64,000 bases of DNA from a virus, in IMG/VR virus record IMGVR_UViG_3300049855_000348, positions 1 through 64,000 of that record; one strand, 5' to 3'. The notes below the pieces were generated by a model, which worked only from the letters and a program-made list of their open reading frames with translations, was not told the origin of the DNA and did not search any database. The position numbers and the translations under genes were made by a program. This document shows positions 3,705-40,430 of the stretch, piece by piece. Positions within the stretch are counted from its first letter, which is position 1. Every line of letters begins with the position of its first letter.

Positions 3705-4262
3705 TCACCTTGGCCGTTTTTGGAAATGCGAAACTTCAGCTTCGAGTCTGGCGATGTCTTGCAGAGCGCCATCGTTTTTATCAACGAGGTTCTGCAATGT
3801 ACTCTTCAGGTTCGAGATCTCATTGGTGGTTGTGGCCTCACTGCGTAAAAGACTGCGAACATCGTCTCTCAACGTGTCCCAGTCTTGACGCTGTGTTTGC
3901 AAACCAGAGATGAGAATCTGAAGACGTGATTCAAGATTCTGTTGCTGTGCGAAATGATTCTGTTGTTCAATGGCACGATCATCAAGACGTTGGTGGATAC
4001 GAGTGATCGCAGCATTGAATTCATTACGAATTATTTCTGAAACATCATCATTACTCTCATTCAGATCGACCTTCACCTGATTGAGATGTTCTTTGACGAT
4101 AGAAGAGATCTTCTCTTCGTGTGGATTTGCTTCCTGATATTTCAGGATCTGTTCGAGCTTGGTGTTGACCTCGCCTTTCCAGATGCCGGCCTGAAAGATC
4201 CAGACAACACATCCACCGCCAGTGATCAGGGCGATGATCGAGATAACGAGGTTCCAGTCCAT
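3705..4262 (-). CDS. N-terminally membrane-anchored coiled-coil protein
   Basis: 185 aa with a hydrophobic N-terminus (WNLVISIIALITGGGCVVWIF) followed by heptad-like Q/E/L-rich sequence. Confidence 0.5.
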   Translation of the reverse strand: MDWNLVISIIALITGGGCVVWIFQAGIWKGEVNTKLEQILKYQEANPHEEKISSIVKEHLNQVKVDLNESNDDVSEIIRNEFNAAITRIHQRLDDRAIEQQNHFAQQQNLESRLQILISGLQTQRQDWDTLRDDVRSLLRSEATTTNEISNLKSTLQNLVDKNDGALQDIARLEAEVSHFQKRPR

Positions 4263-17612: not shown

Positions 17613-17859
17613 AAAAGTTCCATTCGTCCAAGAACCAGACACGTTCATCACTGCAAAACCAGTCGAGAAAAAGGCTGGGAAGCAATGGGTCGTGAAGAAA
17701 GTTCACACCACTATCAAAATCATGGATCAAGATATTCCAATGAAAGATCCAGAAAGTGGTGTGGTTGGTTTTCTGCCAGTTCTGGATGATTATGAGAAAG
17801 CACTTCGTTTCGTAGATGGTGATAGAAGTCTTCTAGCCGGTATCGAACCGGTCACTTGA
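17605..17859 (+). CDS. small hypothetical protein
   Basis: 84 aa. It overlaps the upstream stop, and its own stop overlaps the 5' end of the first tRNA-like RNA. Confidence 0.5.
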   Translation: MPEKVPFVQEPDTFITAKPVEKKAGKQWVVKKVHTTIKIMDQDIPMKDPESGVVGFLPVLDDYEKALRFVDGDRSLLAGIEPVT

Positions 17860-18008
17860 CTCCTATGGTAGCCGTGAAAGCGCAAGGTGTAAAACCCCCA
17901 GGCGAGTAGAACGGAAGGAATCCGAAGTGGGTAGTTGACCAAGCTGTGGCCACAGCCGTCAGCGAGAGCGGAGGAGATAGGTGGGTTCGATTCCTGCCGG
18001 AGTCACCA
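17858..18008 (+). ncRNA. 151-nt tRNA-like RNA with an acceptor stem, T-arm and encoded CCA but a greatly expanded body
   Basis: 5' GACTCC pairs with 3' GGAGTC-A-CCA. The T-arm is GTGGG-TTCGATT-CCTGC. The body carries a copy of the CAAGG..CCCCCAG loop motif and a GCTGTGGCCACAGC palindrome. Confidence 0.5.
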
Positions 18009-18055: not shown

Positions 18056-18308
18056 AAGAACCTACGACACACTTGCCAAATTGTTCTTGCAACTGAAATC
18101 AGTCTTGCTACACCTCCACGTACCAGCCATGAGACCTCTCACCTCCATACCAGCCGTTCGCGCCACCAAGTGGCAAGCGAAGCCCATGACCAAAACGGTC
18201 AATGGCGCACAGGGTTGCTTTGGAGTGACAACTGAACGCAATCAGGCCGATCACATTCCGGAACCAGGGTTCATGTAGCAGACAAGGGTAAAACCTCCAA
18301 GCCACATG

Positions 18309-18350
18309 AACCCCGGGACCAAAAAGTCTCGGGGTTCTTCTTTTTCTGAT
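18309..18350 (+). terminator. terminator-like hairpin with a T-rich tail
   Basis: AACCCCGGGAC-caaaaa-GTCTCGGGGTT followed by CTTCTTTTT. Confidence 0.55.
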
Positions 18351-18490: not shown

Positions 18491-18565
18491 CGTCGAGTAT
18501 TTCAGCGGAAGAATATCTGCATGACATGCAGAAGGTCGGTGGTTCGATCCCACCCTCGACGACCA
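18491..18565 (+). tRNA. tRNA-Val(GAC)
   Basis: 75 nt. Acceptor cgtcgag/ctcgacg, T-arm ggtgg-ttcgatc-ccacc, anticodon arm tctgc-atGACat-gcaga, CCA encoded. Confidence 0.7.
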
Positions 18566-18570
18566 AACAA

Positions 18571-18648
18571 TGCGGAGTAACTGGAGATGGAACCAGCCCA
18601 GCCTCATAAGCTGAACAAACGTGTGTTCGAGTCACACCTCCGCAACCA
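18571..18648 (+). tRNA. tRNA-Met or Ile2 (CAT)
   Basis: 78 nt. Acceptor tgcggag/ctccgca, D-stem ctgg/ccag, anticodon loop ctCATaa, T-arm gtgtg-ttcgagt-cacac, CCA encoded. Confidence 0.7.
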
Positions 18649-18650
18649 TT

Positions 18651-18839
18651 TGCAAGGACCTCTCTGCCCACCATCTCGATCCTAAGAAGAAAGAAGACAA
18701 CATCGGTACGATGGTCAGAAGAAGAGTGGCTATCAAAACTTTGGAAATCGAACTGCAAAAGTGTCTCTGCGTGTGTGAGAACTGTCATCGCAAGATCCAT
18801 GCAGGTATCATCAAACCTTTTCTCAGTGCTGGATCATGA
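18651..18839 (+). pseudogene. HNH endonuclease remnant (HNH core only, no credible start)
   Basis: The frame reads ...SAHHLDPKKKEDNIG...CLCVCENCHRKIHAG.., the H-H...N...CxxCH..H core. There is no ATG upstream of the HH, and the ORF-track start lies inside the tRNA-Met. Confidence 0.5.
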
Positions 18840-18886
18840 CCGAACGCCTGTGGTCATTCCCTGGCGGGCACTCGGATTCTTCACAT

Positions 18887-18963
18887 GGTGGTCGTAGCTC
18901 AATGGATAGAGCACTGGACTGTGGCTCCAGCGGCTGTGGGTTCGACTCCCATCGATCACACCA
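18887..18963 (+). tRNA. tRNA-His(GTG)
   Basis: An extra 5' G (G-1), acceptor gtggtcg/cgatcac, D-arm gctc-aatggata-gagc, anticodon loop ctGTGgc, CCA encoded. Confidence 0.8.
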
Positions 18964-19047
18964 GTTCATTGTGCGGAGTACGCGCCTGACCCAGGCAAGA
19001 GGGTTTGCTCTAACCTCCCAGAGAAGAACGGGAGGTTGCTTCGGCAT

Positions 19048-19121
19048 GGCTTGGTCGCTCAACGGCAGGGCGCTGGTTTGAAAAACCAGAGACGAAGGTT
19101 CGACTCCTTCTCAAGCCACCA
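19048..19121 (+). tRNA. tRNA-Phe(GAA)
   Basis: 74 nt. Anticodon arm ctggt-ttGAAaa-accag, T-arm gaagg-ttcgact-ccttc, CCA encoded. Confidence 0.8.
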
Positions 19122-19133
19122 TCTCCTTCTCAC

Positions 19134-19211
19134 GGTCGGTTCACTGCATGGTGCAGTGTGCGCAAGGACAGTCCCCTAAGCACGGCGGTTCGATTCCCCG
19201 GCTGACCACCA
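19134..19211 (+). ncRNA. tRNA-like RNA A: normal acceptor, D-arm, T-loop and CCA but no canonical anticodon arm
   Basis: Acceptor ggtcggt/gctgacc and D-arm actg-catggtg-cagt. The 26 nt at the anticodon position form only gtgc/gcac around an 18-nt loop, gcAAGGacagtCCCCTAAgc. No 5-bp/7-nt arm is found in any register. Confidence 0.5.
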
Positions 19212-19221
19212 TTTTTTTCAT

Positions 19222-19294
19222 CGGCTGGAATAGGTGCGCGTAAGGCATCAGATCCCCTCAAGCGATGGAGGTTCGATTCCTCCCTGGCCGACCA
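19222..19294 (+). ncRNA. tRNA-like RNA B: 7-bp acceptor, T-arm and CCA with a 38-nt non-cloverleaf body
   Basis: Acceptor cggctgg/ctggccg and T-arm ggagg-ttcgatt-cctcc. The body contains cgc-GTAAGGcatcagatCCCCTCAA-gcg. Confidence 0.5.
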
Positions 19295-19407
19295 AGTACG
19301 ACTTCTCGGGTTCCGCAAGGAACGATCGTCCTACTGGCTACAACGGTGAAAATCCGGTGGATGCCAGAGGTGGTGGGATGGCTCACCAAATAAACTGAGA
19401 CTCATAA
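19295..19407 (+). ncRNA. structured spacer RNA (GNRA-capped helices), homologous at its 3' end to 19485..19592
   Basis: Helices gttcc-GCAA-ggaac, ctggc...gccag enclosing ccgg-tgaaaat-ccgg, and ggtg...cacc, followed by AAATAAACTGAGACT. Confidence 0.4.
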
Positions 19408-19484
19408 GCACCGATCGGCTGGTGGAAAAGCTACCTCCCTTTCAAGGAGATTCTTCGCGGGTTCGACTCCCGTTCGGTGTACCA
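19408..19484 (+). tRNA. tRNA-Glu(TTC)
   Basis: 77 nt. Acceptor gcaccga/tcggtgt, anticodon loop ctTTCaa, T-arm gcggg-ttcgact-cccgt, CCA encoded. Confidence 0.75.
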
Positions 19485-19592
19485 ACGACGGAGCACAGTG
19501 ATCGAAAGATCGACCGGCTAGGCAACTCGCAAGAGTGCTCGAAAGGGCGGAGTCTAGTGGGGTGTAAGCACCTCGAATAAACTGTGAGTTAT
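19485..19592 (+). ncRNA. structured spacer RNA (GAAA- and GCAA-capped helices)
   Basis: Helices gatc-GAAA-gatc, actc-GCAA-gagt, gagcac...gtgctc and ggtg-taag-cacc, followed by GAATAAACTGTGAGTT. Confidence 0.4.
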
Positions 19593-19666
19593 GGTCCTTT
19601 CTGTCAGTGGCAGGCAGCCTGATTCTCAGTCAGACAACGTCGGTTCGATTCCGACAAGGACTACCA
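19593..19666 (+). tRNA. tRNA-Glu(CTC)
   Basis: 74 nt. Acceptor ggtcctt/aaggact, D-arm tgtc-agtggca-ggca, anticodon loop ttCTCag, T-arm gtcgg-ttcgatt-ccgac, CCA encoded. Confidence 0.65.
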
Positions 19667-19670
19667 GCAA

Positions 19671-19766
19671 GAGCGGGACACTGGTTCGAGGCCAGTCATC
19701 GCAAGATGTAGCTCAGGGTGAAAACGTAAGGCATCAAACCCCCAAGTAATCCGGAAGAGCACGCTC
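19671..19766 (+). ncRNA. circularly permuted tRNA-like RNA X1 (T-arm, then GCAA-capped acceptor-like hairpin, then D-arm; the termini form the anticodon-like stem)
   Basis: GAGCG-ggac-ACTGG-ttcgagg-CCAGT-CATC-gcaa-GATG-ta-GCTC-[42-nt insert with GTAAGGcatcaaaCCCCCAAG]-GAGC-a-CGCTC. Every helix was read directly. Confidence 0.55.
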
Positions 19767-19771
19767 TATTT

Positions 19772-19849
19772 GTTCCTGAGGACTAACGGCTAGGTCACCT
19801 CCCTGTCACGGAGTCATTCAAGTGGGTTCAACTCCCATCAGGAACGCCA
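19772..19849 (+). tRNA. tRNA-Asp(GTC)
   Basis: 78 nt. Acceptor gttcctg/caggaac, anticodon loop ctGTCac, T-arm gtggg-ttcaact-cccat, CCA encoded. Confidence 0.75.
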
Positions 19850-19853
19850 ACAT

Positions 19854-19927
19854 CCACGCTTCGTCTAATGGCAGGGCACCGATCTGATACGTCGGATACC
19901 AAGGTTCGATTCCTTGAGCGTGGACCA
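19854..19927 (+). tRNA. tRNA-Ile(GAT)
   Basis: 74 nt. Acceptor ccacgct/agcgtgg, anticodon arm ccgat-ctGATac-gtcgg, T-arm caagg-ttcgatt-ccttg, CCA encoded. Confidence 0.75.
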
Positions 19928-19941
19928 CTTCAGTTTCACAT

Positions 19942-20016
19942 TGTGGGATGGCCTATGTGGTAGGGCACCCGGTTGTTACCCGGACTATACTGGTTCGACT
20001 CCAGTTCCCACAGCCA
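19942..20016 (+). tRNA. tRNA-Asn(GTT)
   Basis: 75 nt. Acceptor tgtggga/tcccaca, anticodon loop ttGTTac, T-arm actgg-ttcgact-ccagt, CCA encoded. Confidence 0.75.
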
Positions 20017-20021
20017 CTTTT

Positions 20022-20097
20022 GGGGTCGTAGCTCAATTGGCAGAGCACCTGTTTTGCACGCAGGATGTTAGCGGTTCAAGTCCGCTCGATTCCACCA
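20022..20097 (+). tRNA. tRNA-Ala(TGC)
   Basis: 76 nt. G3:T70 wobble present, anticodon arm cctgt-ttTGCac-gcagg, CCA encoded. Confidence 0.8.
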
Positions 20098-20167
20098 CGC
20101 GGGAGTAATCTGAGAAATCAGAGAGAATTACCAGCCTCACAGCCGGCAAGGAGTAGACTGTGGTTTT

Positions 20168-20243
20168 GGGGAGTTAGCTCATCTGGTAGAGCGCGAGCAT
20201 GGCATGTTCGAGGCGAGGAGTTCAAGTCTCCTACTCTCCACCA
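20168..20243 (+). tRNA. tRNA-Ala(GGC)
   Basis: 76 nt. G3:T70 wobble present, anticodon arm cgagc-atGGCat-gttcg, CCA encoded. Confidence 0.75.
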
Positions 20244-20602
20244 CTTTCAATCATACGGGCGGCGATATCTCAGAAGCGTAAGGATGATCCCCCAAGTTAT
20301 GAGAAAATCCTATGGGGTGAAAGCCCTCAACTGTCCACCACTCGATCGGAACGTCAGTCGCAGCGTAAGGCTTTTATCAAATCCCCAAGCTGTGCAGTAA
20401 CGCAACTGCTGGTGAAAGACCAGCCTGATCACTCTTCAAACGAAACCCTGGCGGTGAAAAACCGCTTCCTCGGCGCATCCCCTACGTTGGTCTACCTCTG
20501 AAGTTTATCGACCCAGGGCTTCGTGTTTCTGCTAGCTAGATTCATGGGTACCATCAGCGACATCGACGATCAACTCTACGTTCAGCACATCAAGTAACGC
20601 AT
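20244..20602 (+). ncRNA. about 360-nt non-tRNA structured region rich in GNRA-capped helices, with two copies of the GTAAGG..CCCCAAG loop motif
   Basis: Helices gggt-GAAA-gccc, gctggt-GAAA-gaccagc, gcggt-gaaaa-accgc, gcagt-aacgca-actgc and cagc-[GTAAGGcttttatcaaatCCCCAA]-gctg. The only ORFs are short and overlap tRNAs. Confidence 0.4.
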
Positions 20603-20677
20603 ACGTCGATAGCTCCAATGTAGAGCGACGGTTTCCAAAACCGTTGGTTGGGGGTTCAAGTCCCTCTCGACGTGCCA
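20603..20677 (+). tRNA. tRNA-Trp(CCA)
   Basis: 75 nt. Acceptor acgtcga/tcgacgt, anticodon arm acggt-ttCCAaa-accgt, CCA end encoded. Confidence 0.8.
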
Positions 20678-20682
20678 TTCAC

Positions 20683-20757
20683 TGAGAGATAGTTCAACGG
20701 TAGAACGCTGCCCTCTGGAGGCAGATGCTAGAGGTTCGAGTCCTCTTCTCTCAACCA
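20683..20757 (+). tRNA. tRNA-Gln(CTG)
   Basis: 75 nt. Anticodon arm ctgcc-ctCTGga-ggcag, T-arm agagg-ttcgagt-cctct, CCA encoded. Confidence 0.8.
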
Positions 20758-20760
20758 CAC

Positions 20761-20835
20761 TCAGGAATAGTTCAACGGTAGAACGCTGACCTTTGGAGTC
20801 AGTTGCTCCAGGTTCGAGTCCTGGTTCCTGAACCA
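20761..20835 (+). tRNA. tRNA-Gln(TTG)
   Basis: 75 nt. Anticodon arm ctgac-ctTTGga-gtcag, T-arm ccagg-ttcgagt-cctgg, CCA encoded. Confidence 0.8.
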
Positions 20836-20843
20836 TTTCACAT

Positions 20844-20922
20844 CTGCGTGTAGCTCAGCCTGGAACAGAGCACTTGCCTTGGGAGCAAGGGGTCGGAGGT
20901 TCAAATCCTCTCACGTAGACCA
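20844..20922 (+). tRNA. tRNA-Pro(TGG)
   Basis: 79 nt. Anticodon arm cttgc-ctTGGga-gcaag, T-arm ggagg-ttcaaat-cctct, CCA encoded. Confidence 0.8.
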
Positions 20923-20927
20923 TTCAT

Positions 20928-21009
20928 GACGGTCGAGTCGAAAGTCGGGCGCTCCGGCATCAGATTGCAACCCTGATGACAGGTGGTTGAACTCCACCGA
21001 TCGTCTCCA
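20928..21009 (+). tRNA. tRNA-Cys(GCA) with an enlarged (about 14-nt) D-loop
   Basis: 82 nt. Acceptor gacggtc/gatcgtc, D-stem gtcg/cggc, anticodon loop ttGCAac with an A:C at the 31:39 pair, T-arm ggtgg-ttgaact-ccacc, CCA encoded. Confidence 0.55.
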
Positions 21010-21014
21010 TTCAC

Positions 21015-21090
21015 GTGTGTGTATCTCAGTGGCTAGAGAGCTTCCTTGCCAAGGAAGAGGTCGCAGGTTCAAGTCCTGTCACACACTCCA
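21015..21090 (+). tRNA. tRNA-Gly(GCC)
   Basis: 76 nt. Anticodon arm cttcc-ttGCCaa-ggaag, CCA encoded. Confidence 0.8.
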
Positions 21091-21092
21091 AC

Positions 21093-21161
21093 AGGGGCAA
21101 ATGCGGGTTCAACTCCCGCTGCGACTTCGGTCGTATCGTCTAACCCGGTAGGACGGCCCCA
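21093..21161 (+). ncRNA. circularly permuted tRNA-like core X2 (T-arm, then UUCG-capped acceptor-like hairpin, then D-arm); further helices extend to about 21282
   Basis: aGGGG-caaat-GCGGG-ttcaact-CCCGC-t-GCGAC-ttcg-GTCGT-at-CGTC-taacccggtag-GACG-g-CCCC. Downstream helices are ccgtgcgg/ccgcacgg and ccgctc/gagcgg. Confidence 0.5.
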
Positions 21162-21282
21162 CCCCGTGCGGATTGGATACCCGCACGGAATCCGAAGTCC
21201 TCAGGTTCAAGCCAAGGCAACCGCTCGCCGAGCGGAATACAAAATGCGGCTAGAGCAGGGGAGCACGAACGTGGCCCCGTTT

Positions 21283-21356
21283 GCCGATGTAGGTCAATGG
21301 TAGATCTGCTGCCTTCCAAGCAGAGGACGCGGGTTCGATTCCCGCCATCGGCTCCA
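21283..21356 (+). tRNA. tRNA-Gly(TCC)
   Basis: 74 nt. Acceptor gccgatg/catcggc, anticodon loop ctTCCaa, T-arm gcggg-ttcgatt-cccgc, CCA encoded. Confidence 0.8.
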
Positions 21357-21360
21357 TCAT

Positions 21361-21436
21361 GTGTGCCTAGCTCAATGGATAGAGCATCTGACTACGGATC
21401 AGAAGGTTGAAGGTTCGAGTCCTTCGGTACACGCCA
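21361..21436 (+). tRNA. tRNA-Arg(ACG)
   Basis: 76 nt. Anticodon arm tctga-ctACGga-tcaga, T-arm gaagg-ttcgagt-ccttc, CCA encoded. Confidence 0.8.
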
Positions 21437-21469
21437 TTGCATAGCGATCTTTTTGGCTAGCATGTAACC

Positions 21470-21997
21470 ATGTCACTCAAAGATGCCCTCTTTCACTTTC
21501 GTGATCTTGGTTACTACGTTGATGATCAAGGAAATGTATTCAACCCAAGAGGAAAGATTCTTCGGTGTTCAACAAACAAAGATGGTTACAAAAGAATTAC
21601 CACAAGAATGAGAAATCATCCAGTTCATGGGGATTGGTGCCCTAAGGTTGAGGTTCACCGTCTTGCCGGTTATCAGAAGTTCGGAGACAAAATCTTCACC
21701 GAAGGACTTGAGATCTGTCACGATGATGGCGATAAGCGAAACAACGCCAAAGACAATCTGCGACTCGATACGCACAAAAGTAATATGATGGATGTTCCTC
21801 AAGAGGTAAGGATCAATAGAGCAAGACGTGCTGGTAGAGAACATGCCAAGCTAACAGATGAGCAGGTTGCTCACATTCGTTCATCTGGCATGACTCTGAA
21901 ACAGATCATGCAAACATACGGTATCAGTAAGTCTGGTGCCTCCTACGTCAGATCAGGAAAGACTTACGCCAGCCCGTGTATCCCCTCGCTTTCCTAA
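21470..21997 (+). CDS. HNH (HNH_3-type) homing endonuclease with a C-terminal HTH
   Basis: 175 aa with ...GYKRITT...EVHRLAGYQKFG...EICHDDGDKRNNAKDNLRLDTHKSN.. and LTDEQVAHIRSSGMTLKQIMQTYGISKSG. The gene is AT-richer than its surroundings and is embedded in the tRNA array. Confidence 0.75.
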   Translation: MSLKDALFHFRDLGYYVDDQGNVFNPRGKILRCSTNKDGYKRITTRMRNHPVHGDWCPKVEVHRLAGYQKFGDKIFTEGLEICHDDGDKRNNAKDNLRLDTHKSNMMDVPQEVRINRARRAGREHAKLTDEQVAHIRSSGMTLKQIMQTYGISKSGASYVRSGKTYASPCIPSLS

Positions 21998-22051
21998 AGC
22001 GGTGAAAGGGTAACTGGACACATGCAGGTTCAAATCCTGCCTCGGGTACCA
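21972..22051 (+). ncRNA. atypical tRNA-like RNA E1 (possible tRNA-Arg(CCT) lacking a D-arm)
   Basis: Acceptor gcccgtg/ctcgggt (one T:T mismatch), then 7 nt, then arm tcgct-ttCCTaa-agcgg, then 21 nt, then T-arm gcagg-ttcaaat-cctgc and A-CCA. Its 5' end overlaps the HNH gene's 3' end. Confidence 0.4.
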
Positions 22052-22054
22052 CAT

Positions 22055-22132
22055 CGGGGTCCTAGTACGGGAGTGTCTGCATACCATTCGGTCACTACAG
22101 CCTCGGCGGTTCAATCCCGCCAACCTCGACCA
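22055..22132 (+). ncRNA. tRNA-like RNA with acceptor, T-arm and CCA but a long hairpin in place of the D and anticodon arms
   Basis: Acceptor cggggtc/aacctcg (6 of 7 pairs) and T-arm ggcgg-ttcaatc-ccgcc. The body forms agtgtctg-cataccatt-cggtcact, an 8-bp stem with a T:T mismatch and a 9-nt loop. Confidence 0.4.
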
Positions 22133-22135
22133 CAT

Positions 22136-22211
22136 GCGATCGTATTTCAATTGGAAGAACACCACCCTCCGAAGGTGGAAGGTGCAGGTTCGAGTCCTGC
22201 CGATCGCGCCA
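22136..22211 (+). tRNA. tRNA-Arg(CCG)
   Basis: 76 nt. Anticodon arm ccacc-ctCCGaa-ggtgg, T-arm gcagg-ttcgagt-cctgc, CCA encoded. Confidence 0.8.
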
Positions 22212-22214
22212 TCT

Positions 22215-22290
22215 GGTGACGTAGCTCAATGGACAGAGCTTCCAGCTTCTACCTGGATGGTTGGAGGTTCGAGTCCTCCCGTCATCGCCA
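22215..22290 (+). tRNA. tRNA-Arg(TCT)
   Basis: 76 nt. Anticodon arm tccag-ctTCTac-ctgga, T-arm ggagg-ttcgagt-cctcc, CCA encoded. Confidence 0.8.
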
Positions 22291-22294
22291 TCAT

Positions 22295-22369
22295 GCTGCC
22301 ATAGCCGAGTGGTAAGGCACTTCATTCGTAACGAAGAGACCGGGTGTTCGATTCACCCTGGCAGCACCA
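22295..22369 (+). tRNA. tRNA-Thr(CGT)
   Basis: 75 nt. Acceptor gctgcca/tggcagc, anticodon loop ttCGTaa, T-arm gggtg-ttcgatt-caccc, CCA encoded. Confidence 0.7.
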
Positions 22370-22373
22370 TCAC

Positions 22374-22449
22374 GCCCCCATAGCTCAGTTGGTAGAGCAA
22401 CAGTTTTGTAAACTGTAGGTCGTCGGTTCGATCCCGACTGGTGGCTCCA
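22374..22449 (+). tRNA. tRNA-Thr(TGT)
   Basis: 76 nt. Anticodon arm acagt-ttTGTaa-actgt, T-arm gtcgg-ttcgatc-ccgac, CCA encoded. Confidence 0.8.
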
Positions 22450-22456
22450 TTTTCAC

Positions 22457-22530
22457 GCTGCTATAGTTCAGTGGTAAAACACGTCCTTGGTAAGGACGAG
22501 CCCCAGGTTCAATTCCTGGTAGCAGCACCA
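22457..22530 (+). tRNA. tRNA-Thr(GGT)
   Basis: 74 nt. Anticodon arm cgtcc-ttGGTaa-ggacg, T-arm ccagg-ttcaatt-cctgg, CCA encoded. Confidence 0.8.
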
Positions 22531-22535
22531 TTCAT

Positions 22536-22611
22536 CCATCAGTAGCGTAATTGGCAGCGCAGCGGGTTTTTACCCCGTGGGTTGTGAGTTCGACTCTCAC
22601 CTGATGGACCA
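22536..22611 (+). tRNA. tRNA-Lys(TTT)
   Basis: 76 nt. Anticodon arm gcggg-ttTTTac-cccgt, T-arm gtgag-ttcgact-ctcac, CCA encoded. Confidence 0.8.
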
Positions 22612-22617
22612 TCGCAT

Positions 22618-22693
22618 GCATCCATAGCTCAACTGGCAGAGCACTCGGTTCTTACCCAAGGGGTTGGAGGTTCAAATCCTCCTGGATGCACCA
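22618..22693 (+). tRNA. tRNA-Lys(CTT)
   Basis: 76 nt. Acceptor gcatcca/tggatgc, anticodon loop ttCTTac, T-arm ggagg-ttcaaat-cctcc, CCA encoded. Confidence 0.75.
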
Positions 22694-22707
22694 TCATTAC
22701 ATAAGTC

Positions 22708-22941
22708 ATGCCAGCATGGAAATGGATGATCCTGAAGTTCTGTACCAGAGCGCATTTCATGCGGCTCATAGCAACCTTGATCATCCTCATCGCAGGCTTT
22801 CAATCTCTCTACTACCAGAAGATTGAAGACACGTGGTTGATCCTGGTTGGTGCAGTGATGAACCACTACTTCAACCACAAAGAAGCTGCGAACGTCACGG
22901 AAGAAGACAAGAATCCGGACGACGAATGCAAGGTCGGTTAG
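22708..22941 (+). CDS. small two-TM membrane protein (hypothetical) inside the tRNA array
   Basis: 77-aa ORF with two hydrophobic segments (LIATLIILIAGF and WLILVGAVM). Its 3' end overlaps the next tRNA by 10 nt. Confidence 0.4.
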   Translation: MPAWKWMILKFCTRAHFMRLIATLIILIAGFQSLYYQKIEDTWLILVGAVMNHYFNHKEAANVTEEDKNPDDECKVG

Positions 22942-23006
22942 TTCAGCGGTAGAACGCTTCTCTTACACGGAAGATGTCGGGGGTTCGATCCCCTCACCGA
23001 CTACCA
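22932..23006 (+). tRNA. tRNA-Val(TAC)
   Basis: 75 nt. Acceptor ggtcggt/accgact, anticodon arm cttct-ctTACac-ggaag, T-arm ggggg-ttcgatc-ccctc, CCA encoded. Confidence 0.8.
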
Positions 23007-23011
23007 CTTGC

Positions 23012-23091
23012 CGGTCTGTATCGGCTCGGTCTTATAAGCCGTCGAAACCGTAATTGGTTACATGAGGGTTCGACTCCCTCCAGACCGACCA
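23012..23091 (+). ncRNA. atypical tRNA-like RNA E2 (possible tRNA-Ile(TAT) lacking a D-arm); same architecture as E1
   Basis: Perfect acceptor cggtctg/cagaccg, then 8 nt, then arm cggt-ctTATaa-gccg, then 22 nt with an aacc/ggtt hairpin, then T-arm gaggg-ttcgact-ccctc and A-CCA. It lies immediately upstream of an HNH gene. Confidence 0.4.
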
Positions 23092-23126
23092 CAAGGCTTC
23101 CACGATTCCCCTCCAAGGAGAACGCC

Positions 23127-23678
23127 ATGGCACCCGGTGCCTGCATAGTGCTGAACAACTCGTATGCCTTCCTCTCGATCAACAACTGGTTCGAGGCGAT
23201 GCGTCTCGTCGTCCGTGGCCGCGCCGTGCCGCTGGCAAACTACGAGACCAAGATCCGGGCAGAGCGTGAAGAGTTCGACGCACCAGCAGTCGTGATGCTG
23301 AAGCACCACGTGAACCTGGGGCGGAGAAGGCAACCTTTCACCCTGCCATCACATCGCAACATCTGGGTCCGTGATGGTGGGCACTGCGCCTACTGCAATC
23401 ACCCGCTGACGCTGCGGACAGTGACCAAGGAACACGTGATGCCCAGGTCACGCGGTGGAGAAGACAGCCTCTTGAACGTCGTGTCCGCCTGTGGCGACTG
23501 CAACGCCAAGAAGTCGAACCGCACGCCGGCAGAAGCCGGCATGAAGTTCCGTGACGGCATCGAACTGCGTCACCTCAACGATGAGGAGAAGCTGACGGTG
23601 CTGCTCAAGACCTCCCAGAGCCACGAACGGAAGACGTGGCTGGGGTTCCTCAAGAAGCAGGGTCTGACGCTGTTCTGA
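23127..23678 (+). CDS. HNH endonuclease (McrA-like)
   Basis: ATG at 23127 after AAGGAGAA. Motifs CAYCNH...EHVMPRSRGGEDSLLNVVSACGDCNAKKSN are present. The longer ORF-track start at 22974 runs through tRNAs and was rejected. Confidence 0.75.
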   Translation: MAPGACIVLNNSYAFLSINNWFEAMRLVVRGRAVPLANYETKIRAEREEFDAPAVVMLKHHVNLGRRRQPFTLPSHRNIWVRDGGHCAYCNHPLTLRTVTKEHVMPRSRGGEDSLLNVVSACGDCNAKKSNRTPAEAGMKFRDGIELRHLNDEEKLTVLLKTSQSHERKTWLGFLKKQGLTLF

Positions 23679-23896: not shown

Positions 23897-24578
23897 TCAC
23901 TCCATCAAGCCGTCCAGGTCCCCCTTCATCCAAGCACGCACCGTGATGGATCGCCCTGTGCGGTGGTCCCTCACGTTGTCGTTCTGCACCTGGATGGTGC
24001 GGATCTTGTCACCACGCTCGCCGGAGCCTATCTGCTGCCGGCGATCGTCGTTTTGATCGGTATGGTGTTGGGTAGCGATGCCCCCCGCCAGACGCTCCTG
24101 TAACAGGGCCATGGCAGCATGCTTGTTCGACAACTGGTGGCGCTCTTTGTCGGCACGGACAGTCATGCCCGTCGGACGATGGGTGATCTGCACACCCGAC
24201 TCAGTCTTGTTGCGGTGCTGACCACCTGGGCCAGATCCACGGACGGTGATGATATCCAGGTCGCGTTCATCCAGCACGAACTTCTGCTGCTGGCTTCCAT
24301 CGATCACCGCCACGGTGACCGTCGAGCTATGGACACGACCCTTGCGCTCAGTGGGTGGAACCCGCTGCCAACGATGGCCGCCTGCTTCTTGGCTGAAGGC
24401 TTCTTTGGCTCCCTTACCAGTAACGGTGAGCCGCAGAAAGCCGTGAGACTCTTGATCCACTACAACTTCAAAGACCCCTCCGCGCTCCCCATTTGCGATA
24501 GATGGTGAGGTGTTCGCGCACGAGCAATCGTGCGTCCTCGCCGCCTTCAGCGGCTCTGATTTCGAGGTGGATAGTCAT
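23897..24578 (-). CDS. RF1-like peptide chain release factor lacking domain 1; needs a +1 ribosomal frameshift at CTT TGA: join(24578..24471, 24469..23897) on the minus strand
   Basis: Frame 0 reads MTIHLEIRAAEGGEDARLLVREHLTIYRKWGARRGL then TGA. The +1 frame continues EVVVDQESHGF...GGHRWQRVPPTERKGRVHSSTVTVAV...GSGPGGQHRNKTESGV (a PxT-like PPT and the GGQ motif). The slip site is cGGAGGGGT CTT TGA A. Confidence 0.8.
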
Positions 24579-29753: not shown

Positions 29754-30350
29754 ATGCGCTTCTTCCTCCTGCTCCTCCTGTCCTTCTCCACTCTGTTCGC
29801 CGGTGATCCTCCGGCTGCCGAGGCCAAGCTGCCTGCCGATGTGCAGAAGGTAGTCGATGAACGTGATGCTGCGGTGGCCAAGGCCAAGGCGGTCTTCGAT
29901 GCGGCTCAGGCCAAGGCGACGACCGAGGCTATCGCCAAGCTGGAGAAGGTGGTTGTCGCCATCACAAAAAAGGGCGATCTCGCCAACGCTACGGCTATCC
30001 AGAAGTTGGTCGACGAGTACAAGGCCGGGCTTCCGGATCTATTGGGTAAGAAACCAGAAACAAAAATCGATCTTGAGGAGGCGATTGTTGGTGTGAAGTG
30101 GAAATTTTACTGGCAAGGTCTTGGTGGTGAAAACAAGATCATGAGATTTGCCCGTAAGGGTGTCATTAGTGAAGGGTCCAACTTCGGTGAAAACAGTTAT
30201 CGCATCAAGGACGGTGTTCTACAACTTCTCAATCAGAATGGTGGAATACACAGCACTCTCACTCTGAGGGCTGATGGGAATCTTGAAAGTGGAGACACTT
30301 CTGAATCAACCTGGAAGGGGAAGTGCTTCTTGATCAAGGCCGAGAAATAA
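29754..30350 (+). CDS. secreted protein (signal-peptide-like N-terminus)
   Basis: ATG at 29754 after AAGGAA. The N-terminus MRFFLLLLLSFSTLFAGD is followed by an Ala/Lys-rich helix and a beta-rich C-terminus. Confidence 0.55.
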   Translation: MRFFLLLLLSFSTLFAGDPPAAEAKLPADVQKVVDERDAAVAKAKAVFDAAQAKATTEAIAKLEKVVVAITKKGDLANATAIQKLVDEYKAGLPDLLGKKPETKIDLEEAIVGVKWKFYWQGLGGENKIMRFARKGVISEGSNFGENSYRIKDGVLQLLNQNGGIHSTLTLRADGNLESGDTSESTWKGKCFLIKAEK

Positions 30351-31146
30351 TCCTGATCAGTTCGTTGTTTTTCACGTCCTGACAGAATGATGGGCGATCA
30401 ATAAGAAGGCTGTCGTTTTCAAATACGTCGATCGACAGCCTTTCAACTTCTGCCCATCTATAGAGAAAATGAAAGTGGTAGGAGTAGATCTCGAAGTCTG
30501 ACTCAACCTGAAGAAGTCGACCATCGATGTAGCGAACGGCTGGATGAATGCCTTTGTGATTCTGAAGAGAGTCGCGGCCAACGTGCTTGGCTCCAACTCG
30601 CTTCATCGCTATGGAAAACCACCGCTCATCAAGACAATGATGTTTTTCAGTATCGCAGATCTTTTGCCGAAAGTCCAGATCTTCTGAAAATTCTTTGAAC
30701 CACTTTTCTTGAGTAGAAGAAAAGTAGTCATTTTTGAACCATGTCCAATATCCTCCGATGCGATCATAATGACTGATTATTTCAACATCGTCAGAGATCA
30801 GATTTTTTACTAGATCGTAGTTTCCGTACATGGCATCCATGTCGGTCCACATAAAACAATCGTAATCTTTGATGATGTCGTTGAAGATCCAATAGAAGAG
30901 CGGTCGAAGATCACAAATTTTATAGGCATGCGGAAGACCCTTGAACTCTGGAATTATCTTTCTTACACGCTCGTTGATGTCCTCCATCGACATCTTTACG
31001 AATTCCATGTTAGGATACATCTTGGGAGGAGGTGTATCAGCAATAACGATGTACTTGTCGATTCCCTGCTTCGCACCTGAACGTCCAGTCAGGTGCCAGA
31101 TCTTAGGGTAAGGTCCCTGCCAAACGTTGAGCATGCAAGAACGCAT
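30334..31146 (-). CDS. putative glycosyltransferase (DUF6625-like pattern)
   Basis: 270 aa with YKICDLRPLFYWIF..DYDCFMWTDMDAMYGN. Last gene of the AT-rich minus-strand operon. Confidence 0.45.
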   Translation of the reverse strand: MRSCMLNVWQGPYPKIWHLTGRSGAKQGIDKYIVIADTPPPKMYPNMEFVKMSMEDINERVRKIIPEFKGLPHAYKICDLRPLFYWIFNDIIKDYDCFMWTDMDAMYGNYDLVKNLISDDVEIISHYDRIGGYWTWFKNDYFSSTQEKWFKEFSEDLDFRQKICDTEKHHCLDERWFSIAMKRVGAKHVGRDSLQNHKGIHPAVRYIDGRLLQVESDFEIYSYHFHFLYRWAEVERLSIDVFENDSLLIDRPSFCQDVKNNELIRIISRP

Positions 31147-31147
31147 C

Positions 31148-34009
31148 TTACCACCATGCCTTGAAGAAGCCGATACCGTCGGCGAAATATCTGAATGTAA
31201 CTGACATACCTTTTTTACGCAGGTAGGTAGAAAGACCTTCTATGGTATAATCAGAGATTGAATGACCACTCATCATACTTGCTGAGTATCGATTGTCTCC
31301 TTCCCTGAAGTTATGAAACTCACCGACAATCTTTTTTATTTTAGAAAGTTTTTTGGTGGTGTAGAGGATAGGGAACTCAGATCCTTCACAGTCAATCTTC
31401 AAAAGATCAACTTCATCTAAGATATCGTCTAGACCAATTACAGGGACACTTATTGTTCCACGCTCATAAATCACGTGTGCTCCTCCAAAGTTGTTTCCAA
31501 CGTTGGTGAGACTTGCTATTGATTTACGATATTCGTCTGATCTTCCTATAGCGGCTGTGATGACTTTGATAGATGGATATTTTTTTACATTTTGTGCAAG
31601 TATGAGGAGGTTGTCTAACATCGGCTCACAACATATCACTTCTTTTGCACCAAGTGAGGCGCACATGGCTGAGAATGCACCAATGTTGCCGCCGATGTCC
31701 AACACTGTTTTTCCGCTCACGTCAGATGGTTGTATCTCATACTCGTTTTCAATGACAACAGAGTGAATGACGCCCTGGTCAGTTGTATTTTCACGATAAA
31801 CGAGTTCGTTGGCGATGTTTTTTGCTTTGGCTTTACTGATAGGAAGTTTTGGAATAACTCTTTTGTGTGAATAGTATTCATCAAGCTGTGTTTGAGCAGT
31901 GATAAACTCAACAACATCGCCATGATAAAAACCAAGACCACCACTCTTCTTTATTTTGAAAAGATACAATGGTGTTCCACAACACATAGCCACATGCGCA
32001 ATACCTGAATCAACGGCAAACACAGCACGAGCCGACGAGATTTCGTCAAACAAGGCTTTCATGTCGGTGCCATGGTCTTTGAATGTTGCTAATGGGAAGG
32101 ATGCCTTCATCCATTCATCATGTGGTTGAAGGAAGACTATGTTATAGCCTTGCTCCGTGAATCGAGCGACCAATTGAACGATGTCGTCTTTAGAGATGTC
32201 GTAGTTGTTCGAGTAAGATCCCGACGAATGACCTACAAGGTGAAAAATGACATTGTTCCTTCCGGAATCACCACAAGAATATCCAAGATAGTCATGTGGA
32301 AAATCCAACGCATCAGCCGAACGGTCTTTATTACCGAATTTCATGACCTTGATGAAATTTGAAATAAAGTTAGAGCACTCGAAACTACTCCAGTGCTCGT
32401 GAACACAGTTGTCACTAGGAACTGGGATCCACCCTGTGAAATCCTCAGGTCCACCGTCAACTGGTCGAATCTTTGTTACAGGAATCTGCTCGATCCATTG
32501 ATCAATGTCTTGGTGTTCTATCCTGGCGATGTCTACAAACTCTCGCATCTTTTGATCAATGAGTTTGCTGTTACCGTAAAAGTAAAGTTTCTGCTTTGTA
32601 TGTTTAGCATACCAATAATACAAAGAGACATGCAATATAGCATCACCAAGACCTGACTTCCAGTTGATGTAAAGGAAGGGTTTTTCTTTCACCGCATTCT
32701 CCTTCCTATCAAACCACCGCTCAACCTTGTGTTCATCGTAGTTGAGCGTCCAGTCCCAGAAGGCTTCCTTGCTGCGGTAGACCCACATAGGAACACGCCA
32801 CCCTGCCGCGATGAAGCAGGGTCCGCTCTGGGGGGTGATCAACAGATCGAGCTTGCTGACCATGTCGACTATCCAGGAGATGTCGCCGTTGACCTGTCGC
32901 AGGTCTTCAACGCCCTCAGGAACGATTCTGTTGTCTCGGTTGCCTATCAGGAAGATCCGATGCTTTGGATAGCTTTGACGGGCTTCCTTGAGCATCTGGT
33001 CTAGGACTACAGGGTCGATATCTCCCTGGGTGTTGCTGTGGGTGATCAAACCGATGAGTCCGCCGTTTGGCCTTGGCTTTGGTCTGTTGAAGTGGATGTC
33101 AAAAGACTTTCCTGGAGTCATGGTCGGATCCATGAAACGGTAAAATCTCTTCACACCGTTCATCTGAGGCCATTCGTCTAAAGAAGGGTTACCACCGCAA
33201 TCGATCATGTCGGGAGTGCGTTCAGACCAGATCACCCCATCAAAAAACTCACAGGCAGCTTTGCGTTCTGGTTGAAACCAGACCAACACCGAGTGACCGG
33301 TTTTTATATGATAGAGATGAGCGGCAGCACAGAAACCTAACACATCACCGAGCATCTGGTGACCCATCCAGAATGATTTTTCGGCTTTCTTGACGTTGTG
33401 TGAATCGATAAGGAAATCGTCGTAGACGACCTTTTTCTTGAATCGAACGACTACCTTTTTTTCAATATCAGAGAAGTCATCAAGCTGGAAGGCATATCCC
33501 TCTACGGTGATTTTGACATTTAGATTACTTGCACGATAGAGATAATCGACACCTTCCTGCTTCAAAATCTCAACATTATATTTGAGAAAATCATAGGTCT
33601 TTTTTGGATCATTTACGGCATAAAATTGTGTGCCCCATGGAGCACCACTTTTGATGGTGAATAAGCCTTTTGTATCGAGAGGTAGTGTTGTTTCACTGTG
33701 AAAAAACAAAAGGTCGTAATCGTCACCTTCGTTCATGATACCATCAATATCAGACATGAGTCCACGACGAAAGAGAGCATCATCTTCACAGATGAAGATC
33801 TTCTTATGTCCAGCTTTTATCGCCATTTCTAGGACTTTGATATGACCGAGAGTACAAGCCAGTCGACGATTCTCGTTCACGACTCCGTCTACCACAACGT
33901 AGGTCGTGTTCATCTCTTCCATTTGCTTAGCAAAAATGGCACGTCGATCACTACGGCTGGGGAGACTCAGGACGTAGACCTGATCAACGTAATCATTCAA
34001 CGATGTCAT
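31148..34009 (-). CDS. 953-aa multidomain fusion: GT25-like glycosyltransferase, two GT9 (heptosyltransferase)-like modules and an FkbM-type methyltransferase
   Basis: The N-terminus (YVLSLPSRSDRR...GHIKVLEMA...IFICEDDALF) looks like GT25. The middle (LGDVLGFCAAAH..., LIGLITHSN..., ITPQSGPCFIAAGW...) looks like GT9. The C-terminus (VLDIGGNIGAFS...LLKIDCEGSEFPIL) looks like FkbM. Confidence 0.6.
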   Translation of the reverse strand: MTSLNDYVDQVYVLSLPSRSDRRAIFAKQMEEMNTTYVVVDGVVNENRRLACTLGHIKVLEMAIKAGHKKIFICEDDALFRRGLMSDIDGIMNEGDDYDLLFFHSETTLPLDTKGLFTIKSGAPWGTQFYAVNDPKKTYDFLKYNVEILKQEGVDYLYRASNLNVKITVEGYAFQLDDFSDIEKKVVVRFKKKVVYDDFLIDSHNVKKAEKSFWMGHQMLGDVLGFCAAAHLYHIKTGHSVLVWFQPERKAACEFFDGVIWSERTPDMIDCGGNPSLDEWPQMNGVKRFYRFMDPTMTPGKSFDIHFNRPKPRPNGGLIGLITHSNTQGDIDPVVLDQMLKEARQSYPKHRIFLIGNRDNRIVPEGVEDLRQVNGDISWIVDMVSKLDLLITPQSGPCFIAAGWRVPMWVYRSKEAFWDWTLNYDEHKVERWFDRKENAVKEKPFLYINWKSGLGDAILHVSLYYWYAKHTKQKLYFYGNSKLIDQKMREFVDIARIEHQDIDQWIEQIPVTKIRPVDGGPEDFTGWIPVPSDNCVHEHWSSFECSNFISNFIKVMKFGNKDRSADALDFPHDYLGYSCGDSGRNNVIFHLVGHSSGSYSNNYDISKDDIVQLVARFTEQGYNIVFLQPHDEWMKASFPLATFKDHGTDMKALFDEISSARAVFAVDSGIAHVAMCCGTPLYLFKIKKSGGLGFYHGDVVEFITAQTQLDEYYSHKRVIPKLPISKAKAKNIANELVYRENTTDQGVIHSVVIENEYEIQPSDVSGKTVLDIGGNIGAFSAMCASLGAKEVICCEPMLDNLLILAQNVKKYPSIKVITAAIGRSDEYRKSIASLTNVGNNFGGAHVIYERGTISVPVIGLDDILDEVDLLKIDCEGSEFPILYTTKKLSKIKKIVGEFHNFREGDNRYSASMMSGHSISDYTIEGLSTYLRKKGMSVTFRYFADGIGFFKAWW

Positions 34010-40429: not shown

Positions 40430-40430
40430 G

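Follow-up and report, generated by a model that had tools for sequence, protein, structure and literature searches.

Permuted tRNA-like cloverleaves with compensatory base changes between the tRNA genes of a large uncultured phage

RESULTS

A phage tRNA array contains structured spacers.

The window (the whole stretch of DNA analysed here, 64,000 nucleotides) is part of the genome of a large or giant uncultured phage of about 220 kb. Its gene content, as read with Pfam and PHROGs, includes a DnaE-type polymerase, a Rad3/DinG-type helicase, HNH endonucleases, and baseplate and tail proteins. The identical helicase is present on a 220-kb JGI contig and a 112-kb Logan contig, and the nearest cultured phage by this protein is Tunturiibacter phage Tunturi_5, at 28% identity. 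On the plus strand, a tRNA array extends from 18491 to 23006 and comprises 25 ARAGORN calls together with a tRNA-Asp known from Rfam only. Two spacers of this array carry the elements studied here, which we call X1 and X2 (Table 1). Neither region (19667-19771 or 21091-21282) is called as a tRNA by ARAGORN or by Rfam RF00005 in the form in which it is encoded.

X1 occupies most of the 105 nt that separate tRNA-Glu(CUC) from tRNA-Asp. The encoded CCA of tRNA-Glu(CUC) stops 3 to 4 nt 5' of X1, and X1 stops 4 nt 5' of tRNA-Asp. We found no promoter-like or terminator-like sites adjoining X1 on the plus strand and no credible ORF overlapping the window copy. The scanned ORFs within 4 kb of X1 or X2 are the helicase, an ORF with a MazG-like PHROGs match, two HNH ORFs, an RF-1-domain ORF, and a 124-aa ORF without a Pfam match. 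A small conserved ORF at 18129-18278 has no protein-database entry.

Table 1. Coordinates of X1, X2, their parts, their neighbours, and their homologues. Positions are those of the window unless a contig is named.
Feature	Position	Strand	Description and evidence
tRNA-Glu(CUC)	19593-19666	+	Upstream neighbour of X1; ARAGORN; Rfam 48.5 bits
X1, entire permuted cloverleaf	19670-19767	+	98 nt; MFE fold; descriptor; covariance-model alignment and pair counts
X1 terminal anticodon-stem-like helix, 5' strand	19670-19675	+	AGAGCG, partner 19762-19767; 6/6 pairs kept, each with a two-sided change in at least one homologue
X1 variable-loop-like link	19676-19679	+	GGAC; read from sequence; tRNA numbering
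X1 T arm	19680-19696	+	ACUGG / UUCGAGG / CCAGU; fold; 3/5 pairs compensated; aligns to YrlA T stem-loop
X1 closed acceptor-like hairpin	19697-19708	+	CAUC-GCAA-GAUG, 4 bp; fold, homologue comparison
X1 UA connector	19709-19710	+	Equivalent to tRNA U8 and A9; invariant in three X1 homologues
X1 D arm	19711-19760	+	GCUC (19711-19714) / GAGC (19757-19760), 42-nt loop; fold; stem nearly invariant
X1 recurrent hairpin module in D loop	19725-19746	+	CGUAAGG-caucaaa-CCCCCAAG; exact and looser copy counts; kept in L003 and L077
X1 A26-like connector and terminal helix, 3' strand	19761-19767	+	Connector followed by CGCUCU; pair counts
tRNA-Asp(GUC)	19772-19846	+	Downstream neighbour of X1; Rfam 42.9 bits; no ARAGORN call
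X2, permuted cloverleaf without insert	21094-21160	+	Terminal stem GGGGC/GCCCC, T arm GCGGG-UUCAACU-CCCGC, hairpin UGCGAC-UUCG-GUCGUA, D arm
Conserved non-tRNA segment 3' of X2	21161-21253	+	ACCCCG, compensated hairpin, AGUCCU, GCAACCGC..GCGGAAUACAAAAUGCGGCUAG; L002 alignment; folds
X1 homologue	L003 5730-5825		Directly upstream of tRNA-Asp
X1 homologue	L077 4046-4158		Directly upstream of tRNA-Asp
X2 homologue	L002 15386-15454		Just after tRNA-Gly(GCC), same place as window X2

X1 and X2 fold as cloverleaves with rotated connectivity.

The initial annotation had read the X1 spacer by eye as the full set of tRNA helices in permuted order, with an anticodon-like stem made by the RNA's own ends. 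Folding bore this out. All of the helices are present where they had been placed, and the proposed cloverleaf is both the minimum free energy (MFE) structure and the centroid computed by RNAfold (-27.1 kcal/mol). The elements follow one another as terminal stem, T arm, closed acceptor-like hairpin, and D arm, and the 5' and 3' ends pair where the anticodon stem of a tRNA would stand. The terminal stem, first described as 5 bp (19671-19675/19762-19766), extends to 6 bp through A19670-U19767. The junctions are of tRNA length: a 4-nt variable link, no nucleotide between the T stem and the acceptor-like hairpin, UA before the D stem, and the A26 equivalent after it.

The T loop and the start of the D loop had also been described as canonical, and the window copy indeed keeps the tertiary-contact residues of the tRNA elbow: U8, A14, G15:C48, the early D-loop GG, T54/C56/A58, G53:C61, and A21. 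The D loop begins with AGGG (A14, R15, GG) and finishes with A21. By analogy with tRNA, the last C of the GGAC link can pair with G15 of the D loop in a Levitt-type G15:C48 pair.

A second element of the same topology, claimed at 21093-21161, proved to be real and lies at 21094-21160. The acceptor-like stem of window X2 has 6 bp and a UUCG cap. The conserved segment 3' of X2 may be part of the same RNA. We discarded a distal GCCCC that could close the whole X2 spacer in the window fold, as it is not conserved in L002, one of the related arrays described below.

When the three X1 and two X2 sequences now available were folded separately, each gave the same cloverleaf as its MFE structure, and the RNAalifold consensus for X1 is again this cloverleaf; thus, for X1 in the window, L003, and L077, thermodynamic folding prefers no unrelated structure. 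X2 folds better than all of its shuffles (z = -3.06; 0 of 200 shuffles fold as well), and the folding energy of X1 is ordinary for its composition (z = -0.83 in the window; -0.83, -1.98, and -0.65 for the X1 set). Ordinary folding-energy z values are common among tRNA-sized RNAs.

Base pairs of X1 and X2 are compensated in related phages.

Through helicase homologues we reached four metagenomic contigs that carry related arrays with the same tRNA order: L003, whose helicase is 83% identical to that of the window, L002 and L076 (59%), and L077 (54%). Wider searches added no further arrays. Close DNA relatives were absent from the INPHARED phages (megablast of 19400-21500; blastn of the X2 spacer). 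In IMG/VR, the helicase as a single query found no relatives, the helicase alignment found only helicases of 23 to 26% identity, and a DNA pattern combining the hairpin module of Table 1 with a T arm had no match. A scan of JGI metagenomes with the helicase alignment returned two distant loci, both without tRNAs, and the further helicase relatives with DNA had no tRNA array.

X1 is present in L003 and L077. In an unfitted MAFFT alignment of the window and L003 copies, all 19 pairs form in both sequences and 7 are compensated, 4 of them in the terminal helix and 3 in the T stem. A covariance model built from these two sequences recovered the L077 copy with 25 bits (E about 0.002). MAFFT misplaced the L077 copy, and X1 was therefore realigned with the covariance model; in the resulting three-way alignment, which comprises three sequences and is fitted to the model, all 63 cells across 21 pairs are paired. 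Two-sided changes occur at 10 of the 21 pairs, a count equalled in 0 of 500 shuffles, and slid controls gave 0 to 2 such pairs. Covariation among homologues, which the initial annotation had named as the check on its helices, is thus present. Variation is minimal in the D stem (GCUC/GAGC) and the 4-bp hairpin, which therefore receive no support from covariation; they rest on thermodynamics and the analogy with tRNA.

The three copies differ in several details. L003 has CAUC-GAAAA-GAUG (4 bp) as its acceptor-like hairpin, and in L077 the stem has 7 bp and carries an 8-nt loop. The originally described GNRA cap (GCAA) is therefore correct for the window and is not conserved. Position 55 of the T loop is G, not U, in both L003 and L077. 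Positions 15 and 48 form G15:C48 in the window and L003 and G15·U48 in L077. In the L003 copy, a competing proximal D stem is possible (GCUU-AGAGUGGAA-GAGC).

For X2, two sequences (window and L002) could be compared. MAFFT misaligned their acceptor-like and D arms, so the pairs were counted by hand: of 14 pairs that could be aligned, 6 are compensated, and no helix is disrupted. The acceptor-like stem of the L002 copy has 7 bp and the loop ACCA-U. The tertiary-contact residues are all present in both copies, which have A15:U48 as against the G15:C48 of X1 (window, L003), so the Levitt pair covaries between the elements. Taken together, these comparisons show that X1 is a four-way junction with tRNA geometry and rotated connectivity that is conserved by compensatory change in related phages.

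X1 is absent from some arrays and lies beside an HNH gene in one.

In L002 and L076, X1 is absent, and tRNA-Glu(CUC) and tRNA-Asp stand 2 to 3 nt apart. Because the site is empty in two of the five arrays, X1 is accessory or dispensable in this lineage. Two losses may account for this, or X1 may be mobile with homing-endonuclease cassettes. In L077, an HNH_3 ORF (3529-4098) lies between tRNA-Glu(CUC) and X1, and its last ~17 codons overlap the 5' half of X1. One could thus suppose that X1 is the passenger or remnant of such a cassette, with a fold that serves the cassette (for instance as a stable, RNase P-defined 3' end of the HNH mRNA) and does not act in trans. The empty sites would be consistent with presence/absence polymorphism, these arrays contain HNH ORFs at several places (window 21470-21997 and 22974-23678; L002 17528-18079), and related HNH_3 genes adjoin tRNA genes in unrelated phages. 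However, those closest relatives of the L077 ORF, found beside single tRNA-Ile genes, have no X1-like element, and X2 of L002 has no adjacent HNH gene. Moreover, X1 is free of ORFs in the window and L003, where every pair is nonetheless kept despite many substitutions, which argues for selection on the RNA itself. We therefore regard a role confined to the cassette as unlikely.

The same data bear on a still less probable reading, namely that X1 is nonfunctional debris of tRNA rearrangement, formed by the inner halves of an ancient tandem tRNA pair and tolerated in a spacer. A tRNA array is the natural site for such debris, and an origin from dimeric tRNAs has been proposed, as a hypothesis only, for the bacterial Y RNA YrlA (bioRxiv 10.1101/312249); the absence of X1 from two of five arrays and its unexceptional folding energy would also agree. 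Against this stand ten compensated pairs, with none broken, at 54 to 83% identity of the neighbouring helicase, and the conservation of both the tertiary-contact residues and the D-loop module. Furthermore, no parental tRNA of X1 or X2 is recognisable among the 101 tRNAs of the five arrays; X1 is therefore old and not a recent accident.

The permuted fold is rare in 0.94 Mb of phage DNA.

We scanned both strands of the window and 76 loci, 0.94 Mb of phage DNA, with a strict descriptor requiring the T loop T-N-C-R-A, four helices, and tRNA-like linkers. It matched X1, X2, two homologues of these, an identical Logan copy, and one AT-rich site inside an ORF that looks like a chance match. No tRNA-tRNA junction in the 0.94 Mb matched it. 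When the T arm was held fixed and the rest of the spacer was shuffled, the other three helices re-formed in 14 of 20,000 sequences for X1 (7e-4) and in 94 of 20,000 for X2 (5e-3). The covariance model R1 also scores tRNA-tRNA junctions (23 bits at 22174-22246) and is therefore unusable alone as a detector.

The initial annotation had suggested looking for tRNAs in the re-permuted sequences. We swapped the halves in silico, added an arbitrary anticodon loop, and ran ARAGORN, with a divided outcome. Re-permuted X2 was called as a tRNA in both the window and L002 forms. Re-permuted X1 from the window and L077 was called only after its D-loop insert had been trimmed, and the L003 copy gave no tRNA call.

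The D-loop insert of X1 carries a recurrent hairpin module.

Between the GG and A21 of its D loop, X1 holds an insert of 39 to 46 nt across copies, which forms a hairpin of its own. The recurrent motif reported within it is well outside chance expectation: GTAAGG..CCCCAAG occurs in 3 exact copies in the window, against 0.01 expected. Looser copies of the module, with the core (C)G-Y-A-A-G-G / loop / C-C-C-(C/U)-N-A-A-G, number more than 20 over the five arrays, all on the tRNA strand. Some tRNA-like RNAs (window 19134-19211 and 19221-19295), conserved in all five arrays, combine an acceptor stem and T arm with an encoded CCA and have the module where the anticodon arm would be; three-way-junction RNAs (20257-20336) carry it as well.

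The 11-nt GAAA-tetraloop receptor consists of UAUGG and CCUAAG, and we take the D-loop module to resemble it. The module reads (G)UAAGG ... CC(C)UAAG or CCCCCAAG, some copies are one substitution away from the receptor, and GGUGAAA loops are frequent in the same spacers. It differs in having extra C residues, and many copies have C for U at two receptor positions. The module is probably where a shared partner binds, whether a protein or an RNA that docks on it, and the hairpin might cover the face of the elbow that most tRNA-binding factors use.

DISCUSSION

X1 as a tRNA mimic released from the array.

We favour the reading that X1, and likewise X2, is a genuine, selected, tRNA-derived non-coding RNA, a stable tRNA mimic released by the processing of neighbouring tRNAs; we put the probability of this at about 0.55. 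X1 would be transcribed within the tRNA array, since it lies on the tRNA strand, is tightly flanked by tRNAs, and adjoins no promoter-like or terminator-like site. The 3' maturation of tRNA-Glu would set its 5' end, and RNase P cleavage at tRNA-Asp would set its 3' end, leaving a 4-nt AUUU tail past the 6-bp terminal stem. The product would be an RNA of about 100 nt with paired ends, and because these ends are locked in a helix it should be stable. X1 would most likely adopt an L shape through the conserved elbow residues and could then act as a tRNA mimic without an anticodon or CCA end. A factor that recognises the body of a tRNA would find in it a decoy or scaffold. The D-loop module would offer a second interaction site, common to other RNAs of the array.

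A broader and more speculative suggestion, about which we are ourselves doubtful, is that the lineage of this phage encodes, independently of Ro, a set of tRNA mimics that have no anticodon, many of them with a tetraloop-receptor-like module that binds a common factor or each other, and that this set diverts tRNA-directed host enzymes or defence nucleases. It would contain two classes, the permuted cloverleaves (X1 and X2) and the acceptor/T-arm RNAs with encoded CCA. In this array a whole set of tRNA-like RNAs is unannotated, and large phages can have, hidden among their arrayed tRNA genes, several classes of structured non-tRNA RNA that escape tRNA finders and Rfam. Such RNAs bear on how phages manipulate translation and evade tRNA-targeting defences.

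Comparison with known RNAs.

The tRNA cluster of phage T4 includes small, stable, co-transcribed RNAs, species 1 and 2 (rnaC/rnaD). X1 and X2 would resemble these as stable non-tRNA RNAs of a phage tRNA cluster that are freed by tRNA-processing enzymes; the T4 RNAs are not described as permuted cloverleaves, and the comparison is one of descriptions only. Two-piece tmRNA (alpha-proteobacteria, cyanobacteria, and others; RF01849, RF04321) has a permuted gene and a tRNA-like body after processing. As in X1 and X2, the T arm precedes, with the CCA-bearing strand, the 5' acceptor strand. However, tmRNA has a G3:U70 pair, a tag reading frame, and pseudoknots, none of which occur in X1 or X2, where the corresponding acceptor-like pair is C3-G70. 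ARAGORN made no tmRNA call, RF04321 had no match at X2, and Rfam returned only a 17-nt T-arm match. We therefore rejected a tmRNA reading of the X2 spacer, as it has no Ala identity pair and reading the sequence gave no plausible tag frame.

Circularly permuted tRNA genes occur in Cyanidioschyzon merolae and in certain other algae and archaea (Soma et al. 2007, as cited in bioRxiv 10.1101/312249). X1 and X2 share with them the 3' half upstream of the 5' half and the presence of all four helices. It follows to ask whether X1 or X2 could itself be such a gene, with ligated ends and an opened hairpin, or a two-piece chargeable tRNA-like RNA. The ACCA-U of the L002 X2 could be read as a discriminator with CCA, after which comes a plausible RNase P site, as in the YrlA of M. 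smegmatis, and the tails of window X1 beyond the 6-bp stem would join as a 7-nt loop, AUUUGCA. Nevertheless, permuted tRNA genes yield real tRNA precursors with a full 7-bp acceptor stem and, after ligation, an anticodon loop, and they use a splicing endonuclease and ligase pathway; X1 is without these features. In the window and L003 its acceptor-like stem is 4 bp, with a GCAA or GAAAA cap, and in L077 it is 7 bp without CCA, so that no X1 copy has CCA; a 7-bp stem together with an ACCA-U loop occurs in the L002 X2 only. In L003 the presumptive anticodon loop would have 12 nt, and in L077 it is undefined, so no 7-nt loop with U33 is conserved, and we ruled out ligation of the X1 ends on this ground. 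Window X2 is capped by UUCG, and the ACCCCG... that follows it has no U33-type loop. With the G3:U70 pair, the tag frame, and an ARAGORN tmRNA call also wanting, we consider either form of chargeable tRNA very improbable, and a true permuted tRNA gene was rejected for its short, capped acceptor-like stem and the lack of a conserved anticodon loop.

The closest likeness is to YrlA. In this RNA, T, closed acceptor-like, and D stem-loops follow one another in that order; YrlA is modified like tRNAs, and a version with a 7-bp stem is cut by RNase P and receives CCA (PMC4201824). Most YrlA RNAs are likened to circularly permuted tRNAs whose acceptor stems are closed, and the crystal structure 6CU1 (Wang et al. 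2018) shows a close tRNA mimic (bioRxiv 10.1101/312249). YrlA is bound by Rsr and modified by TruB and DusA. The sequences of its T and D stems are strongly conserved (Wang et al. 2018). Ro60 and YrlA-like RNAs have been found in several large phages that have tRNA arrays (PMC4201824; PMC12135203).

The initial annotation had likened the topology of X1 to the tRNA-like module of YrlA, and the likeness holds. In X1 and X2, too, the T stem-loop precedes a closed acceptor-like stem-loop and then a D stem-loop; the flanking strands pair to close the domain, and a variable link is optional. They also have the tertiary-contact residues (U8, A14, R15:Y48, D-loop GG, T54-A58, G53:C61), except for G55 in L003 and L077 and G15·U48 in L077, and the Levitt pair likewise switches between G15:C48 and A15:U48. 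The acceptor-like stem is of variable length, with 7-bp forms (L002 X2 and L077 X1) that look RNase P-cleavable, and YrlA-like RNAs, too, are found in large phages beside tRNA genes. In cmscan searches, X1 and X2 align to positions 27/30-81 of the YrlA model RF02553. No other Rfam family matches X1 (YrlA: 14.2 bits, E = 1.2), and X2 has its best match there (27.3 bits, over the T/acceptor-like/D part only). In stem sequence the picture is mixed: every copy of X1 has the YrlA consensus D stem (GCUC/GAGC) but a T stem of its own, and in window X2 the T stem (GCGGG/CCCGC) is that of the consensus and the D stem is not.

These likenesses invite the view that X1 and X2 are true YrlA-type Y RNAs, tethered to an effector through their tRNA-like domain, with Ro60 or Rsr encoded in the host or elsewhere in a genome of which we inspected 64 of ~220 kb. 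The precedent of large phages that combine tRNA arrays, Ro60, and YrlA-like RNAs would agree with it. As criteria for YrlA (RF02553) we used a GNCGAAN0-1G motif near the 5' end, the presumed Ro60 contact; a TROVE gene within ~4 kb on the same strand; and the gathering threshold of 69 bits. The motif is absent from X1 and X2 and from the sequence 5' of each, and its array-wide count, 3, is that of chance (2.7 in shuffles). X1 and X2 begin 3 to 4 nt after a tRNA, and there is therefore no room for a 5' Ro-binding strand. The earlier remark that no Ro/Rsr-like ORF is seen in the window was borne out by the ORFs scanned: Pfam gave no TROVE/Ro60 match among 40 window ORFs, and PHROGs gave no Ro-like match among 10 of these. 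The scanned ORFs within 4 kb of X1 or X2 thus include no TROVE gene, nor did the genes called in L002, L003, and L077 include a TROVE match. The Rfam searches did find matches at the YrlA model, yet at 14.2 and 27.3 bits they lie far below threshold, and ordinary tRNA-tRNA junctions score as well, at 19 to 33 bits (27.1 at 22166-22270; 33.3 at L002 15114-15178). In addition, the T stems of X1 and X2 covary instead of being fixed (that of X1 differs in each copy), and X1 has a structured D-loop insert and, in two of three copies, G55. Membership among the Ro-bound Y RNAs thus seems to us unlikely, and the resemblance of X1 to YrlA is one of topology and not of family.

As YrlA has the same order of elements and Y-like RNAs are known in phages, the topology is not new. 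Rather than a member of the YrlA family, X1 is a free-standing, array-embedded variant of the YrlA-type permuted tRNA mimic, with a lineage-specific D-loop module and no detectable connection to Ro. If the broader suggestion of a Ro-independent set of mimics is true, X1 and X2 would be free-standing relatives of the tRNA-like domain of Y RNAs, located in the dimeric-tRNA setting that has been proposed for the origin of those RNAs. Since the permuted fold here stands alone and is conserved with no recognisable Ro module or gene nearby, it offers an independent and simpler system than YrlA in which to ask what binds such a mimic.

A recurrent hairpin module in the array RNAs

The hairpin inside the D-loop insert of X1, the permuted tRNA-like RNA between tRNA-Glu(CUC) and tRNA-Asp, runs from a closing C-G pair through GYAA and a GG/CC mini-helix enclosing a variable loop to CC(N)AA. 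We observed more than 20 copies of this module across the window and four related phage contigs (L002, L003, L076, and L077), in every case on the tRNA strand.

Several other RNAs in or upstream of the array carry the module. In the two tRNA-like RNAs that follow tRNA-Phe, it stands in place of the anticodon arm, and the remainder consists of a T arm, an encoded CCA, and a 7-bp acceptor stem. These RNAs are kept in all five arrays; neither ARAGORN nor Rfam detects them. The three-way-junction RNAs, including the one in L003, combine a module hairpin with a GGUGAAA-loop hairpin, and their outer stem shows compensatory changes between the window and L003. In the 151-nt RNA-like element upstream of the array, for which ARAGORN made no tmRNA call, the two ends pair in acceptor fashion (GACUCC/GGAGUC); the element also encodes ACCA and contains a T arm and an internal module copy. 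A further module hairpin and a strong intrinsic terminator come after a 49-codon ORF, for which the protein database contains no entry; both lie shortly 5′ of the conserved array leader (..TATAAT..CGTGGAAGCCA).

The segment 3′ of X2, the second permuted RNA, is also conserved. Its GCGGAAUACAAAA(U/A)GC block is found in L003 in another spacer, between two tRNA-Ala genes; therefore, small RNA modules seem to be shuffled among array spacers.

Features of the window and their counterparts in related contigs
Feature	Window	Related contigs	Remarks
Module copies	19725-19746, 19160-19183, 19238-19264, 20276-20297, 20363-20390, 17881-17905, 18283-18304		tRNA strand
tRNA-like RNAs 3′ of tRNA-Phe	19134-19211, 19221-19295	L003 4897-5068; L002 13130-13330; L076 5256-5412; L077 2960-3130	
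Three-way-junction RNAs	20257-20336, about 20345-20440	L003 about 6790-6880	
151-nt RNA-like element	17858-18008	near L003 3800-3955	
49-codon ORF	18129-18278; terminator 18308-18337		conserved in all five relatives
Segment 3′ of X2	21161-21253	L002 15455-15570; L003 6388-6430	
tRNA-Cys(GCA) candidate	20928-21009		
tRNA-like RNA without anticodon loop	22054-22134	L002 15903-15984	
Degenerate tRNA-Arg(CCU)-like gene	21972-22051		Rfam 28 bits, just below threshold
tRNA-like element	23012-23091		weak tRNA-Sec match, 26.6 bits
HNH endonuclease genes	21470-21997, 22974-23678	L077 3529-4098; L002 17528-18079	
187-aa ORF	23897-24460 (-)		RF-1 (GGQ) domain, PCRF domain fragment; adjoins tRNA array
217-aa ORF	43593-44246 (+)		weak RelA/SpoT-domain match, 23 bits, under Pfam cut-off
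Low-GC island	30000-34000		43-46% vs about 56%

Unusual tRNA-like elements and HNH genes

In the tRNA-like RNA without an anticodon loop, an extended hairpin closes the anticodon arm; this RNA is nearly identical to its L002 homologue, although the helicases of the two genomes are only 59% identical. A probable non-canonical tRNA-Cys(GCA), undetected by ARAGORN and Rfam, has a D stem that is both extended and bulged, and its anticodon loop is closed by an A·C mismatch; L002 carries a normal tRNA-Cys at the matching position. The tRNA-Arg(CCU)-like gene is without a D arm and has a long extra arm, and the tRNA-like element with the weak tRNA-Sec match combines an acceptor stem of 7 bp with a T arm, CCA, a long extra hairpin, and a loop containing CUUAUAA.

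HNH insertion sites differ among the arrays of L077, the window, and L002, and the 3′ ends of these genes extend into whichever tRNA or tRNA-like gene follows. In the window, the end of the first HNH ORF overlaps the tRNA-Arg(CCU)-like gene, and the element with the weak tRNA-Sec match is located within the annotated start of the second. HNH_3 relatives in unrelated phages (loci L078 and L079) adjoin tRNA-Ile(UAU).

Other genes in the window

The 187-aa ORF could be a truncated release factor or an ArfB-like peptidyl-tRNA hydrolase. About 2.8 kb separate the 217-aa ORF from the tRNA array on the minus strand (39879-40769). Within the low-GC island lies a 953-aa ORF, probably acquired horizontally, whose product combines a glycosyltransferase domain with an FkbM methyltransferase domain.

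Comparison of the module with known RNAs

The module has no match in Rfam. Judged by eye, we take it to be close to the 11-nt GAAA-tetraloop receptor.
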